A stretch of DNA of 33,276 nucleotides, from positions 1 to 33,276 of the forward strand of contig JBDRCO010000122.1 in assembly GCA_043821645.1 (NCBI GenBank), given 5' to 3'. Every line of letters starts with the position of its first letter. The stretch's first letter is position 1. Source of the DNA: Pseudomonadota bacterium. Its GTDB lineage: Bacteria > Myxococcota > JACRCW01 > JAFGSX01. Made by a program: the position numbers and the translations under genes. Positions 2-8,362 of the stretch are shown in pieces. The notes under the pieces are model-generated. The model ran no database searches and had not been told where the DNA came from. It was given only the letters and a program-made list of their open reading frames with translations.

Positions 2-781
2 ACCAAGGCCATAGGCTCGGCGCTGATCAAGCACGATAAGCTGGACGCACGGGTTCTGGCGTCGCTCAACGCGGCAGATGTGCTGGCCAGGGTGTCGCGG
101 CCGACGCTCAAGGAGCGCCTGGCTCGCACTCCCGTCGTCATTCGGGACGGGCTTGTGCAGTGCCGGGCCACGTTGATCAACACGGTGCGCTCGGTGCTGG
201 ACGCCGAGGGCATCGAGGTCGCGTCGAGCACAGCCGACGGGTTCACGAGCAAGGTCTGCTCCGTTCTCGCTGAAGCGCCCAAGGAACTGGCCGAGGCGGT
301 GACGCCGATGCTGGAAGCGATCGACGCGCTGAGTGAGCAGATCGCCACATGCGACGAGGCGATCGAGCTGAGCGTGAAGTCGGACCCGGTGGCGCTCGGG
401 CTGATGACAGCGCCGGGCGTCGGTCCCATCGTGACGTCTTACTTTGCGATGGCGGTTCGAGATCCCTCGCGCTTCAAGAGCTGCCGGCAGGTCAGTGCGT
501 ATCTCGGCCTGGTACCGTCGCTGTACGCCTCGGGGCAGACCTCTCGACGAGGGCGCATCACCAAGCACGGCAGCCGCAAGGCGCGCTGGGCGCTGACCGT
601 GGCGGCGAACGCGGTCTTGCGAACGCGGTCTCCGAGTCGGCTCCGGGACTGGGGACTGGTTCTGGTCAAGCGCCTGGGTCGCAAGAAGGCCATCGTCGCC
701 ATCGCGCGCAAGCTGGCGAACGTGCTGTGGGCGATGAGGAAGAACGAAAGAGTATTCGAGCCCATGCACGGCATGGCGTGA
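2..781 (+). CDS. IS110-family (IS1111-type) transposase/recombinase, 5'-truncated by the window edge
   Basis: The frame of ORF 80..781 is open back to base 2 and reads TKAIGSALIKHDKLDARVLA (IS110 K-x-D-x-x-D-A motif). C-terminal domain motifs: PGVGPI, AYLGLVPSLYASG (catalytic SG), ITKHGS, AIARKL. Confidence 0.95.
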   Translation, partial: TKAIGSALIKHDKLDARVLASLNAADVLARVSRPTLKERLARTPVVIRDGLVQCRATLINTVRSVLDAEGIEVASSTADGFTSKVCSVLAEAPKELAEAVTPMLEAIDALSEQIATCDEAIELSVKSDPVALGLMTAPGVGPIVTSYFAMAVRDPSRFKSCRQVSAYLGLVPSLYASGQTSRRGRITKHGSRKARWALTVAANAVLRTRSPSRLRDWGLVLVKRLGRKKAIVAIARKLANVLWAMRKNERVFEPMHGMA

Positions 782-789
782 CAACGGAG

Positions 790-1000
790 AATCTATAACG
801 TCACCGCGGAGCCAAGGTGAGGTTTCGGAGGTCATCCATTGTGTGGAGTGCGGCAGGTGCCATGGCGGGACAACTACGCCGAGTGTCTGATTGCACCCAC
901 CTCTCGAAAACCATCCTGTGCCCGGGCATCAAGGCCCGACCAAGAGCACGTATCGATGGCTGAGGAGACGCTCTCGACGACGACACCGGGGATCCGCTGA
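790..1000 (+). ncRNA. Putative bridge/seek RNA of the IS1111-type element
   Basis: Nested stems 821-832/899-912, 848-853/891-896, 864-867/877-880, 918-921/946-949. 855-863 (AGGTGCCAT) is the reverse complement of 1093-1101, and 951-960 (TATCGATGGC) is identical to 1088-1097. Boundaries approximate. Confidence 0.7.
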
Positions 1001-1068
1001 TCAGTTCTGGAGGTCAGACAGGAAAGATATCAGGACACAGCGATAGCCCGGGCAAGGCCAGGTCGTGC

Positions 1069-1074
1069 TTGACA
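1069..1074 (+). promoter_or_regulatory. -35 hexamer near the IS right end (candidate circle-junction or outward promoter half)
   Basis: Perfect TTGACA just inside the putative right IR, as is typical for IS1111-type ends. No partner -10 can be verified in this window. Confidence 0.45.
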
Positions 1075-1131
1075 TGGGGGGCCGCTTTATCGATGGCACC
1101 TATTCCGGGGGACGCCCCGACGGGCTGCGAC

Positions 1132-2447: not shown

Positions 2448-2560
2448 CGATCGGGCAAACCCCCTGCTGAGTATGGGATGATGCTCCACTTGGGTCAGAG
2501 CGCGCCAGCAAAGGCGGCTGATCCAACACATGCGGTCGCCGGAGAACCCGGGGCGGTTCA
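2448..2560 (+). mobile_element. IS3-family (IS51/IS6110-like) right-end remnant
   Basis: 2535-2560 GTCGCCGGAGAACCCGGGGCGGTTCA resembles the IS6110/IS629-type IRR (...CCGGGGCGGTTCA). Upstream DNA translates as IG..PPAEYGMMLHLGQSAPAKAA, resembling the OrfB C-terminal PPAEYE motif. Confidence 0.75.
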
Positions 2561-2677
2561 GGTACGACCGTACGTGCGGCGGCAGCAGCCGATCATGTCG
2601 ACGGCTTGACCACCCTGTGCGCCACACTGGATCATTGACCGGACCCGGGATCCATACGCGTTGCGGAGGCTGAGTCC

Positions 2678-4246
2678 ATGTTCGATGTCTTCGCGGCAGC
2701 CGGGTATCGTCAACGTTCGCCGTTCATCACCTGCTGCGCGGCGAGCCTCCTGCTCGTGGGGGTGGGCGGCTGCCCGGAAGCGCAAACCACAGGCAGCGCG
2801 GCCGACGCCGCCACCCTGGATTCGCAATCAGACCGGTGGGACAGCGCCACCGCGGCCGACGCTGCCGCCCTGGATTCGCAATCAGACCTGAGGGACAGCG
2901 CCACCGACGCCGCCGTCCTGGATTCGCAATCAGATCGGAGGGACAGCGCCACCGCGGCCGACGCCGTTGCCCTGGATTCGCAATCAGACCGGAGGGACAG
3001 CGCCTCCGCGGCAGATGCCGCTGGCGATGCCGCTGACGGGGCGGATGGAGGCGTGGGAGACAGCTCGGCGTTGGAGGATGCAAGCGAGGGCGATGACAGA
3101 CGCACCCAGTTCACCTGCAACCCCGCCACCACAGGCCTGACCGCACCCTTGCCCGAGTGTACGGTCGACAATCCCTGTGCGCGCCCCACCGGCCCAGACC
3201 AAACCGTACCCTCCGCGCCTCCCGACTGCCCCCTCAGCGATTGGGACGAAGTTGCCGAACAGCAGATCGTGGGGACCATGCGCTATGCCTGTATCCATCG
3301 CGCAGCCGCAAGTCCGAGACCGCTGGTTCTGTTTTTTCACCCGGGTGGCGACGGCGCGTCGGTGGTCTCGGCGACGTCGCTACTGGCCAGGTCCACGACC
3401 ACGAATCTCACTGGCGTCACGGGACAGACCGGATTCACGCTGCTCGCCATTCACGGGCGTCGCATCAGGTTTGGCACAGCCGCCAATCGTGACGGCGAGT
3501 ATCACCACGATTTCTACTATCGCGACCTGAGCTCACCCTCGACAAACCCCGACATCGCCAATGCCGACGCCTGGATCGACCGCATGATCAGCGAGGGCAT
3601 CGTCGACACCAACCGCATCTATGTGATGGGCTGGTCCAACGGTGCCTTCTTCGGACAGCTCTACGCCGTGGCACGTCACGCCACCGGCACCCCCGTGCAC
3701 CACGCTCGGGTGGCAGCGGCGGTGGTCTTCGCCGGCGGCGATCCCTTCAACGGCATCGACGCCAATCCCTTTGCGGATCCCTCTTTCTCGCCGACCACCG
3801 ACGGGGCAGAGTGCCAGCTGAGCACCTATCCCAGCTCGACCGTCCCCATTCTGCTCGTCTATCGAACCTGTGACGTCACCGTTCCCTGTGGTCCTGCCGA
3901 CATCGCCTGCTGGGGTACCAATCGCGGCTATCCCGTCGATTCCTGGCTCAGCAAGGCAGCCACGTACCTGCCCAACCTCACGAGCGTCATGATCAACGGT
4001 GCCGAACCCGAGCGCTCGGGCTTGCAAGACGAGACCGCCACCACCTGCTCGGACGTCGCGCCGAGATGCGGCAGCGAGACCCAGCCTTCGGCTCAGCAAT
4101 GCCTGGTCGACATCTCGGTCTCATCAACCGCCTACTGCCAGTGCTTCTTCAACCACTTGCGTTGGCCGGACAACGACTACCCCGGCTCGACGATCGATCG
4201 CGAGGCGGGGATGCTCCTCTACCTGCGCGCCAATCCTCTCAACTGA
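2678..4246 (+). CDS. Secreted/lipoprotein alpha/beta-hydrolase (PHB-depolymerase/esterase-like) with N-terminal Asp/Ala/Ser repeats
   Basis: Hydrophobic segment ending LLLVGVGGC, LVLFFHPGG (oxyanion region), DTNRIYVMGWSNGA (G-x-S-x-G nucleophile elbow), many Cys, C-terminal NHLRWP. Confidence 0.8.
   Translation: MFDVFAAAGYRQRSPFITCCAASLLLVGVGGCPEAQTTGSAADAATLDSQSDRWDSATAADAAALDSQSDLRDSATDAAVLDSQSDRRDSATAADAVALDSQSDRRDSASAADAAGDAADGADGGVGDSSALEDASEGDDRRTQFTCNPATTGLTAPLPECTVDNPCARPTGPDQTVPSAPPDCPLSDWDEVAEQQIVGTMRYACIHRAAASPRPLVLFFHPGGDGASVVSATSLLARSTTTNLTGVTGQTGFTLLAIHGRRIRFGTAANRDGEYHHDFYYRDLSSPSTNPDIANADAWIDRMISEGIVDTNRIYVMGWSNGAFFGQLYAVARHATGTPVHHARVAAAVVFAGGDPFNGIDANPFADPSFSPTTDGAECQLSTYPSSTVPILLVYRTCDVTVPCGPADIACWGTNRGYPVDSWLSKAATYLPNLTSVMINGAEPERSGLQDETATTCSDVAPRCGSETQPSAQQCLVDISVSSTAYCQCFFNHLRWPDNDYPGSTIDREAGMLLYLRANPLN
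2798..3020 (+). repeat. Intragenic tandem repeat, 4 units of 54/48/54 nt spacing (AADAAxLDSQSDRRDSAT)
   Basis: Core CTGGATTCGCAATCAGA starts at 2816, 2870, 2918, 2972. All spacings are multiples of 3. Confidence 0.95.
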
Positions 4247-6004: not shown

Positions 6005-8362
6005 TCAGCGCGCCGTGGCGGGCAGGTCGACGAAGGGCGCGTCGGGCGTGTACAGGAACCGGTACACGCTCCACGAGCGCAGCACGCGCTTGGTGTAGCC
6101 CCGGGTCTGCTCGATGGGAATGTTCTCGATGCTGACATCGAGATCGGCTGTGGGTGACGCTGCCATCCACTTCTTCACCGCGTTCGGTCCAGCGTTGTAG
6201 GCCGCGATGGCCAGCGCCGGGTTGCCGTCGAAGGTGCGGATGCGGCGCGCGATGTGGGCGCTGCCCAGCCGCACATTGAGATCGGGCTCGGTCAGTCTTT
6301 CCACCTTGAAGTCCGCGACCCGGTCCAGGGCCGCCTCGTCCCGGGCTGTCGAGGGCATGAGCTGCATCAGGCCCACGGCACCGGCCCAGGACACCACGGG
6401 CGCATCAAAGGCGCTCTCCTCGCGGATCAGGCCGTACACCAGGTTCTCGTCGAGGGAACGGCTCTGCGCCCAGCGCGATACCGCGTCGGAGTAGCCTCGC
6501 GGGTAGCCAGCGTGCCACAGCGCTGCATCGGCAGGGTCCGGGCGGCCCACCAGCTCGCGCTCGGCGCGCTTGCGCACCAGCCAGTGCGCGGCGTGGGTGT
6601 CGCCGGCCCGCCTCAGATCTTCCGCCACCGCCAGCACCCCGGGCATGTCCAGGCTCGAGCCATCGATGGTGTTGAGCAGCTCGACCGCCTCCTCGTCGAG
6701 AGCCGCCTGAACCAGGGCATGACCCAGGCGCGCTGCTGCAAGGTCCGGGACCACGATGGACGCTACCTGGCTGGCCGCCTGTTGCACTTGCACGGCCTGC
6801 TCCACCATCCAGCGATCCAGGTTGGCCGCGCGCTCGGGCACCTGCCTGTGCAGCAAGGTCCTCGCCAGCACACCGTAGTAGCTGGTGGGGTCGGCGCGCA
6901 GCAATCCCTCGAGATCGTCGATGGCAGCCTCGCGCTCGTCCCTGGCAACGGCATCTGCAGGTCCAGCGCCGGACACTGCTCTCTCACCGTCTGGACGCGT
7001 GATCTGGCCACCGGCAAGACCGAGCCGCGCGCGCCAGTACACCGCCTGCTGGTAGGGGCGGGAATCCGGGGCGCCGGCTTCGGCCCGAGCGATGGCATCC
7101 AGCCTATCCCGGGCCAGTGCCTGCTTGCCGTCGAGAAAAGCACCCCAGGCCAGGCGCCAGCGTGCCTCGGGCGCGTAGTCCCCCGTCGGGTGCTGATCCA
7201 CGACCTTCTGGTAGAAGCGTTCGGCCTCGGCGTGGCGGCCCTGGCGTGAGAGCACGTCGCCGGAGAAGAACAGCACGTCATCGGTGTACTCGTGCGCGGG
7301 AAAGTTCTCGGCGAAGCGATCGTAGGCAGCCAGGGCCTGGGCGTTCTGGCCCCGGAAACCGGACACCATCCCCAGCAGGTACAGCGCCCGCGGTGCCTGC
7401 TCCGGACACCGCCGCGACAGGGGCTCGAGCACGCGCGCGGCCTGGCTGTGACGACGCAGGTTGCGCAGGCTCTTGCCCTCGACGTAGCCGGCGCGACAGC
7501 TCAGAGTGGCCTCGTCCGTCTTCACGGCGCGCGATGCCTGGAGGGCCTGTTCCAGTTGACTGGCCTCGAGCAAGCGCTCGGCGCGGATCACCGCCCCCAG
7601 GGGCCCGGCGCGACGCTGGATCGCGGCGAGATCGGCACCCAGGAAAGGATCCTCGTCGACGGGAAAACCCGGGACGGTGAGGACATCCGCCGGGTGGCTG
7701 GCCCACAACTCGGCGAGCATCGTGATGCCCAGGTCGGGCTGGCCAGCTCCCCGAGCATCGCGGGCAGCCTCGGCCAGCAGGGGGGCACGCAACACATCGG
7801 TGAGGGGCAAGCCGCGGGGTCCGGTGCGTTCGATGGCCTCGAGCGCCTGTGCGGGTTGACCGGCCCGCCGCAGCGATTGCGCCAGGCCCAGGGTCGCCCG
7901 CAGCATCACGTCGTCGGCCTGGGCGCGCTGGTACCAGCCCGCCGCTTCGGCCGGATGCGCACTCACCAGCAGCACATCACCCATGCGGATGGCCAGACGA
8001 GCGGCCACGGCGCCATCCCCCGCCGCCGCCGCACGCTGGTACAGGGCCTGGAACAGAGGCAGCGCCAGGTCAATGCGGCCCGCCCCCTGAGCGGCGCGCG
8101 CCAGGACCGTCGCGGCCACCCCATCGGCCTCGACGAGGGCAGGCAGATTCACGGCGACACCCGCAGCAGACTTCTCCAGGGTGGGCTCGAGCAGGGCAAG
8201 GGCGGCTTCCGCCTGCCCCTGATGGAGCAGGCTGCGGGCCCGTTCCACCTCGGCGCGGGTTGCAGGCTGGCTGCTCGGCACAGCGGCAGGCAGAGTCTGA
8301 GTCCGAGCCTCGCTCGCAAGCAGCGAGGCGATCAGGGTGACGCTCAGGGTGTGGATCTTCAT
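6005..8362 (-). CDS. slt: Soluble lytic murein transglycosylase (Slt70-like) with TPR repeats
   Basis: Start MKIHTLSVTLIASLLASEA (signal peptide) at 8362, TPR-like helices, C-terminal SLT motifs IREES, AVGLMQLMP, AIAAYNAGP, EQTRGYTKRV. Confidence 0.9.
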   Translation of the reverse strand: MKIHTLSVTLIASLLASEARTQTLPAAVPSSQPATRAEVERARSLLHQGQAEAALALLEPTLEKSAAGVAVNLPALVEADGVAATVLARAAQGAGRIDLALPLFQALYQRAAAAGDGAVAARLAIRMGDVLLVSAHPAEAAGWYQRAQADDVMLRATLGLAQSLRRAGQPAQALEAIERTGPRGLPLTDVLRAPLLAEAARDARGAGQPDLGITMLAELWASHPADVLTVPGFPVDEDPFLGADLAAIQRRAGPLGAVIRAERLLEASQLEQALQASRAVKTDEATLSCRAGYVEGKSLRNLRRHSQAARVLEPLSRRCPEQAPRALYLLGMVSGFRGQNAQALAAYDRFAENFPAHEYTDDVLFFSGDVLSRQGRHAEAERFYQKVVDQHPTGDYAPEARWRLAWGAFLDGKQALARDRLDAIARAEAGAPDSRPYQQAVYWRARLGLAGGQITRPDGERAVSGAGPADAVARDEREAAIDDLEGLLRADPTSYYGVLARTLLHRQVPERAANLDRWMVEQAVQVQQAASQVASIVVPDLAAARLGHALVQAALDEEAVELLNTIDGSSLDMPGVLAVAEDLRRAGDTHAAHWLVRKRAERELVGRPDPADAALWHAGYPRGYSDAVSRWAQSRSLDENLVYGLIREESAFDAPVVSWAGAVGLMQLMPSTARDEAALDRVADFKVERLTEPDLNVRLGSAHIARRIRTFDGNPALAIAAYNAGPNAVKKWMAASPTADLDVSIENIPIEQTRGYTKRVLRSWSVYRFLYTPDAPFVDLPATAR

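Follow-up and report, generated by a model that had tools for sequence, protein, structure and literature searches.

An IS1111-group element with a TG core and a predicted bridge/seek RNA in its 3' non-coding region, from an uncultured Myxococcota genome

The window, i.e., the whole stretch of 33,276 nt analysed here, is contig C122 of a draft genome of 7.07 Mb in 140 contigs (G000). It opens within a transposase gene followed by a long non-coding region, and an earlier note on this DNA had proposed that segments of this region match the right junction of the element itself and act as the guides of a bridge or seek RNA. This locus raises the question of whether the matches belong to such an RNA and, if so, which of its bases would read the target, the donor and the core. 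Our analysis indicates that positions 1–1095 are very probably the right-hand three quarters of an IS1111-group element (IS110 family), the 3' non-coding region of which would encode a bridge/seek RNA at about 802–976. The protein family, the element ends, the core, the RNA structure and the covariation of three guide segments with the flanks were all computed here.

Transposase gene, element ends and core

2..781, forward strand: 3' part of the transposase gene, 259 codons and TGA, the 5' end cut by the contig start

In the ORF listing, this frame is open from its first base and closed by TGA. Its 259 residues matched the C-terminal Transposase_20 domain (PF02371, 79.3 bits, cut-off 21.3) and the NCBIfam model NF033542 'IS110 family RNA-guided transposase' (191.6 bits, cut-off 140). 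The N-terminal DEDD/RuvC-like domain (PF01548) reached 19.6 bits, below its cut-off of 29, because it is cut by the contig start and only its last third lies in the window. Alignment with a 339-aa homologue (L084, an element of 1471 bp; 59% identity) covers residues 79–333 of the latter; therefore, the contig lacks the left end of the element and some 78 codons. The L084 protein carries PF01548 at 54.9 bits in addition to PF02371, and its nearest solved structures are the transposases of IS621 (8wt6, E 4.6e-14) and ISCro4. The GL-P----S(t)G motif of the IS1111 group is present in the window protein as GLVPSLYASG. By these sequence matches, the window protein is a member of the IS110 family of DEDD RNA-guided transposases. 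Transposases of the IS1111 group have 330–350 aa; among complete homologues, the longest ORF measures 338–347 aa in nine of eleven; one has 357 aa, and that of 402 aa in the remaining one is spurious and lies in another frame. Fragments from the PF01548 side of the protein occur on other contigs of the genome, none of which could be linked to the window copy.

Two further observations concern the coding content. The product of window 2–778 and the L084 protein show sub-threshold similarity to NF052498 'TIGR-Tas system RNA-guided endonuclease' (24–27 bits, cut-off 100) and a weak match to TasH chains in the PDB (E 0.0003). Downstream, the ORF listing contains a 522-aa frame at 2678–4246 on the forward strand, the N-terminal part of which holds several tandem units of about 16 residues (DSQSDRRDSATAADAA-like).

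782..1095, forward strand: non-coding 3' region of the element, which starts behind the stop codon, is 314 nt long and closes with the core dinucleotide, where homology among copies ends
1080..1090, forward strand: right sub-terminal inverted repeat, found in reverse complement at the left ends of homologues and of copies on other contigs
1091..1095, forward strand: three-base right terminal extension (1091–1093) and core TG (1094–1095, the crossover point), from junction comparison and from filled and empty sites on contig C112
1096..1101, forward strand: right half-site of the target, GCACCT, part of a palindromic motif that is repeated in the host and does not belong to the element, from the flanks of copies, empty sites and contigs of sequencing run X1

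A long non-coding region downstream of the transposase gene is the arrangement of the IS1111 group, and complete homologues have 345–495 nt downstream versus about 70–105 nt upstream of the gene, with one row (L075) left out of this comparison because its longest ORF is spurious. Approximately 14 further copies or fragments of the region occur in the genome at 76–90% identity. At the right ends of these copies, where assembled, and of the homologues, homology stops after a common right-end motif and TG, so that other copies end at the position that the earlier note had assigned to this one. Past the TG, the copies in this genome carry similar but not identical bases (G, A or T before CACCT, then a T-rich run, then Gs), and some contigs of run X1 part from the window sequence after 1101. 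In the left ends, found through an N-terminal protein fragment, the flank is followed by TG-ATGGAG and then by the right-end repeat in complement. On contigs C5, C66 and C67, this complement matches at 10 of 11 positions, the left repeat of the window copy itself being off the contig. The right terminal extension is 3 bp (1091–1093) and the left one 7 bp (TG plus five bases before the repeat), the latter if the single TG is counted with the left end, which is how PMC11187229 treats ISEc11.

The core was read from filled and empty sites. Contig C112 contains a 310-bp segmental duplication (55–365 and 7997–8303, 96% identity), one copy of which is uninterrupted (...TCGTG-TG-ACACC...), while in the other the sequence switches to the left end of the element directly behind TG. 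The right half-site that matches this C112 site was found at a right junction on C25. Comparison of filled and empty sites shows that insertion adds the element and one TG; therefore, TG is the crossover core. The non-CT core proposed from the window is thus confirmed by filled and empty sites, and the junction comparisons agree. The interrupted C112 copy itself retains about 20 bp of the element left end before running into unrelated sequence, i.e., it is a solo left-end remnant.

Uninterrupted targets were also found. In the same genome, GTGTC-TG-GCACC occurs once, at C109:2268, and GTGCC-TG-GCACC at several places; the homologous element L017 lies beside two uninterrupted GTGTC-TG-GCACC sites. 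Positions 1–700 of C112 hold a cluster of short repeats of the form ...TCGT(A/C)-TG-ACACCT..(T-rich)..GGGG, and window 1096–1115 and the right flanks of the elements share the same RCACCT-T-rich-GGGG tail. Therefore, this genome seems to have a family of REP-like palindromic repeats, half-sites of which would serve as the target. The guide RNA would explain why the element lies within such a host repeat and why the assembly breaks at this place. A second uninterrupted target copy is also seen at L020:3650-3720, about 20 bp past the right flank and with the same 14 bp as the left flank, so that this element occupies one of two target repeats arranged in tandem.

The left flank of the window copy itself lies off the contig, and the copy could not be joined to a left end, as the three contig-edge left ends (C5, C66 and C67) have no sequence overlap with the window start. 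No empty site for the window locus was found among 20 relatives, and contigs of four DNA sequencing runs contained neither a joint across the element nor a piece spanning the window start. A contig of run X3 carries a sequence ending in ...AAAAGGTGCC-ATCGAAAAAGT joined to window position 639, which may be a deletion derivative or a rearranged copy from a related population.

1069..1074, forward strand: conserved -35-like hexamer TTGACA, facing outward

The alignment shows almost no variation in CTTGAC. In the circle junction, TTGACA would stand 17 nt upstream of GATGAT, as opposed to GATGGC in the integrated state, which suggests that 1069–1074 provides one half of a junction promoter and circularisation of the element the other. 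A simple scan of the linear form found no promoter or terminator, and none of the listed RNA sequencing runs contains the stretch.

A conserved RNA structure in the 3' non-coding region

802..976, forward strand: conserved structured RNA, the candidate bridge/seek RNA scaffold with two guide-bearing loops (covariance model R1, 187.9 bits)
816..836, forward strand: 5' hairpin P1, 816–820 pairing with 832–836; 5 of 6 pairs changed on both sides in alignment A2
846..897, forward strand: predicted target-binding loop, the closing stem of which (846 and 848–851 with 893–897) encloses both guides and the hairpin 863–867/877–881, from the alignments
917..950, forward strand: hairpin inside the predicted donor loop, 917–922 with 944 and 946–950, and 923–927 with 934–938; all five inner pairs compensatory

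Homologues came from two sources, i.e., ten loci from species-representative genomes (uncultured Myxococcota, Polyangia and one archaeon) and 58 further loci from metagenomes, found with a pattern built on conserved positions. In the first alignment (A1, 14 sequences), the conserved block is the equivalent of 802–976 and consists of a 5' hairpin, a stem around an internal loop that contains a small hairpin, and a long hairpin flanked by conserved single-stranded segments. A structure of 29 pairs placed on A1 gave 94.8% paired positions and 11 pairs changed on both sides, which none of 500 shuffles reached; slid controls gave 35–46%. A search of 75 sources with the covariance model R1 returned 58 matches; 41 of these were pattern loci, and the other 17 of the 58 pattern loci, which lacked a model match, were dropped. 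In 50 distinct sequences, aligned by fitting to R1, 95.5% of cells are paired, and 18 pairs show compensatory changes in 92 cells. The building of such a model from homologous non-coding regions, which had been put forward as a check, thus yielded a conserved structure with compensatory pairs, and we consider that the secondary structure deduced from these alignments is supported by covariation. The score of the window RNA is as high as that of any copy. Among kin genomes, R1 matched 3 of 150 others of the phylum and, outside the own genome, none in the same order (one other genome) or class (three other genomes).

Folding of the region alone, another check put forward, gave no support. Neither 782–1101 nor 802–976 folds better than shuffles (MFE z-scores of 0.01 and 0.08, respectively), and the MFE structure pairs the guide strands with each other. 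An Rfam scan of 700–1200 found no relevant family, its sole match being a chance snoRNA (E 5.8). RNAalifold preferred a long-range pairing between the donor guide and the 3' strand of P1, which was dropped in favour of the local hairpin, because a substitution in L018 is compensated inside the latter. The complementarity behind this pairing, of window 831–836 to 955–960 (donor guide and core), could be an alternative conformation that masks the guide, or a coincidence.

With the homologues, the stems described for the window can be placed more precisely. The hairpin 864–867/877–880 is present and conserved with compensatory changes. The stem given as 848–853/891–896 is likewise present, but it includes two G.U pairs (852–853/891–892), and only 848–851/893–896 is conserved. 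Position 891 does not hold as part of the stem, since in the homologues 890–891 belong to the guide side.

Guide segments, flanks and alternative readings

855..863, forward strand: right-target guide, an exact 9-nt complement of the right junction that covaries with right flanks
883..891, forward strand: left-target guide GUGUC (883–887), core UG (888–889) and AU (890–891); 61/65 Watson-Crick over 13 left junctions

Direct reading of the window agrees with the two matches from which the proposal started, i.e., 855–863 is the exact reverse complement of 1093–1101 (9 nt) and 951–960 is identical to 1088–1097 (10 nt). In 5000 dinucleotide-preserving shuffles of 782–1110, an inverted match of at least 9 nt appeared in 2058, so that this match alone is unremarkable; a direct repeat of at least 10 nt appeared in 276, and both together, overlapping at one place, in 8. 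The signal of the guide matches in the window itself is moderate, and the decisive support comes from the homologues.

For this comparison, loop segments were taken by alignment column from the 58 model matches and junctions by regular expression, which gave right junctions in 36 and left junctions in 20. After duplicates, short flanks and one misregistered row (L055) had been dropped, 25 right and 13 left non-redundant junctions were scored. The 5' side of the target loop pairs with the 7 nt after TG at a mean of 4.8/7 Watson-Crick positions (permuted 3.46), and the 3' side with the 7 nt before TG at a mean of 5.0/7 (permuted 2.72); none of 10,000 permutations reached the observed value in either case. 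Since the homologues are related to one another, these permutation figures overstate independence, but the agreement between guides and flanks is plain by eye. The loop–flank covariation that the earlier note required of its reading is hence seen for both target guides. On the left, only the five guide bases next to the core and the core itself track the flank (61/65 Watson-Crick for the five bases), and the six-base right guide is Watson-Crick at 113/150 positions. The window right guide matches 6 of 7 flank positions and the core. Poor right-guide matches were found in 3 of the 25 junctions, namely L066 (2/7), L075 (0/7) and a decayed copy, C82a (1/7).

The half-sites themselves differ widely among the relatives, with TCCAAAA, TCCCCAG, ACCCC and AGGTAAT among those on the right and CAGTAC, AACAG, GACTC and CAAGT among those on the left, and the donor end and TG remain constant. 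In one close pair, L020 and L021, a single-base difference in the left guide is mirrored by the same base in the left flank. Each side of the target loop pairs with a different strand of the target, the two matches overlap at TG, and the top-strand match comes first; AU at 890–891 matches the first two bases of the element left end.

The left half of the target had been read as GAGTGTC-TG. Of this, GTGTC-TG stands, while the leading GA (881–882) is scaffold, because it is conserved in most homologues regardless of the flank. L084, which has the same 3' loop side, indeed has GTGTC-TG on its left, as predicted for other copies. Within the genome itself, the left flanks agree in part, as GTGCC precedes TG at the three contig-edge left junctions (C5, C66 and C67); this is compatible with the guide through one U.G wobble but not identical to the predicted flank.

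951..960, forward strand: left-donor guide UAUCGA (951–956), core UG (957–958) and handshake-like GC (959–960), identical to 1088–1097
911..916, forward strand: candidate right-donor guide CCAUCC, complementary to 5 of 6 bases of the core and left-end start, placed by alignment position and left-end sequences

The left-donor guide had been expected at about 950–958, and the copy of the element right end and core was found at 951–958, where 951–956 repeat the last six bases of the element and 957–958 the core. This identity holds across the homologues, and it yields no covariation because the element end is nearly invariant. The dinucleotide that follows, 959–960, recurs as the opening two bases of the right target flank at 22 of the 28 non-redundant junctions (permuted mean 10.8, 0/10,000 permutations). 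This suggests that 959–960 tracks the target in the manner of a handshake guide. In the homologues, 4 to 6 of the 6 bases of the candidate right-donor guide match, again with no covariation, as the left end varies too little.

The alternative that survives best accepts the RNA gene as real and holds that the window copy, and possibly all of its family in this genome, is a fossil without activity, in which the matches record a past insertion. We regard this as possible but rather unlikely. No complete element is assembled in the genome, which is, however, to be expected in a draft of 140 contigs, because repeats break assemblies. A tblastn search with the 259 residues returned one other long match (C109), which is 5'-truncated and split over two frames, and contig C82 holds one internally deleted and one rearranged copy; the visible ORF of the window, on the other hand, has no interruption in its 259 codons before the stop, and the three contig-edge left ends carry open N-terminal reading frames. 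The copies differ from the window copy by 10–21%, and none of the eight full-length RNA copies of the genome has a candidate right-donor guide that pairs with the first core base. Against this, the RNA score of the window copy is unsurpassed among the copies, and its right guide still fits its flank at six of seven positions and the core. Since the genome copies are diverged and several of them are truncated, rearranged or internally deleted, the window copy may be a fossil, and the family may be decaying here. One of the C82 copies (2507–3053, L005) is an internally deleted derivative in which the last ~30 codons follow directly on a short N-terminal piece of the transposase; its RNA region is full but diverged, with UA instead of UG as core guide, and it resembles a non-autonomous miniature copy.

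It is very unlikely that the repeated segments act as DNA, for instance as internal transposase-binding sites that copy the end sequence, with no guide RNA involved. Such a reading draws on the fact that 951–960 is a direct DNA copy of the right junction and that the listed sequencing runs gave no transcript evidence. In addition, mismatches of the G.U type are no more frequent than those of the A.C type (7 versus 8, and 1 versus 1), so that the pairing pattern alone is no proof that RNA rather than DNA reads the target. However, the segments lie in the single-stranded sides of internal loops whose surrounding helices keep their pairing (the 18 pairs and 92 cells above), and compensatory helix changes are a property of RNA or single strands and not of duplex binding sites. 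Moreover, two of the segments track the host target and not the element ends, and related IS1111 elements have been shown to need such an RNA and to co-purify with it (PMC11187229). The last alternative, that the matches are due to chance or are a by-product of a palindromic target and inverted repeats, can be set aside with near certainty, since, for all that a 9-nt inverted match is common in the shuffles and a palindromic target inflates self-similarity, the combined pattern is as rare as stated above and complementarity is kept at the same loop positions in homologues with different, non-palindromic targets (L019, L053 and L095).

We thus retain the reading of 802–976 as the guide RNA of an IS1111-group element. 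By analogy with published relatives, we infer that this RNA is transcribed, bound by the transposase and used to direct recombination. In such a mechanism, the RNA would be bound by the DEDD transposase, strand exchange would occur at the shared TG, and the preferred target would be approximately GTG(T/C)C-TG-GCACC(T), i.e., half of a low-copy palindromic repeat. The locus would be a clean natural example of an IS1111-type guide RNA, whose target guides, donor guide, core and element ends are each placed to the base. The 25 right and 13 left junctions, with many target guides on the same donor end and TG core, form a natural reprogramming series for the scaffold. The useful features of the system would be its TG core, its palindromic repeat target and the many relatives retargeted in nature; with a TG (CA) core, sites that suit CT-core IS621 poorly would come within reach. 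Furthermore, IS1111-type systems may follow a design rule, to judge by the donor-loop dinucleotide, which agrees with the target in 22 of 28 junctions.

Comparison with known systems

For four IS1111 elements (ISEc11, ISPa11, ISKpn4 and ISPst6), a seekRNA from the downstream non-coding region has been shown (Siddiquee et al. 2024, PMC11187229). According to the same paper, the seekRNA co-purifies with the transposase, is reprogrammable, and has its top-strand match 5' of the bottom-strand match, and the elements have sub-terminal inverted repeats of usually 11–13 bp with left and right extensions of 7 and 3 bp, respectively; a range of 7–17 bp is given for the repeats in PMC11208160. The window element resembles these elements in its downstream non-coding region, sub-terminal repeats, 7- and 3-bp extensions, transposase of about 339 aa (in the homologue) and GL-P----SG motif. 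It also shares the order of the two matches, top strand 5' of bottom strand, and their overlap in the target, as well as a -35 element near the right end that could serve a junction promoter. In contrast to them, it stems from an uncultured Myxococcota host and has a different target; the likeness is one of description, the window element being known here from its sequence alone. A second loop matching the element's own end is also evident here, a point beyond the passages of PMC11187229 on target matches, which do not discuss the donor loop.

Bridge RNAs have been predicted in the right end of 93% of the IS1111 elements in ISfinder (Durrant et al. 2024, PMC11208160), so that a guide RNA in the window would not surprise a specialist, and donor-binding bases in multi-loops were noted for many IS1111 orthologues in the same paper. 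Thus, of the proposed programmable-recombinase ortholog with a non-CT core, the core is upheld, while the kind itself has already been described for IS1111 (PMC11187229, PMC11208160). In the sequence-level features compared, the window element agrees with IS1111 elements and their bridge RNAs, and its placement as an uncharacterised member of the class described in 2024 is well supported.

With IS621 (PMC11208160, PMC11208158, PDB 8wt6), the window element shares the predicted two loops with bottom- and top-strand guides overlapping on a 2-nt core, core-adjacent dinucleotides that would pair with the non-cognate partner, and, in its full-length homologue, a recombinase of DEDD and Tnp domains. 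It differs from IS621 in that its RNA lies in the right end instead of the left, the order of the guides in the loops is reversed relative to the direction of the transposase gene, the core is TG and not CT, the sub-terminal repeats are long, and a long hairpin stands between the donor guides, which may be part of a multi-loop. The handshake guides of IS621 adjoin its top-strand guides and, once strands have been exchanged, pair with the non-cognate DNA (PMC11208158, PMC13626964), whereas the handshake-like bases of the window element stand beside the bottom-strand guides. When read on the opposite DNA strand, the RNA would have the IS621 layout of left guide, hairpin, right guide, core and handshake, with CA as the core. 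We give about even chances to the interpretation that, in this IS1111-type clade, handshake-like dinucleotides stand beside the two bottom-strand guides (strands in transposase orientation), i.e., that this is the IS621 machine with its DNA polarity flipped relative to the transposase gene. Such a flip may underlie the 'reversed order' reported for IS1111 seekRNAs. If it is true, the strand antisense to the transposase gene would be exchanged first, and reprogramming of IS1111 elements would require the donor-loop dinucleotide to be changed along with the target. Our literature search returned no paper on handshake guides in IS1111 elements, although the extended data or supplements of PMC11208160 may show them.

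Finally, the element can be likened by description to ISPpu9 and ISPpu10, IS110-family elements of Pseudomonas that insert into repeated palindromic extragenic sequences (PMC12288879, bioRxiv 10.64898/2026.03.19.712850). According to the same sources, ISPpu9 has a small RNA gene downstream of its transposase gene.
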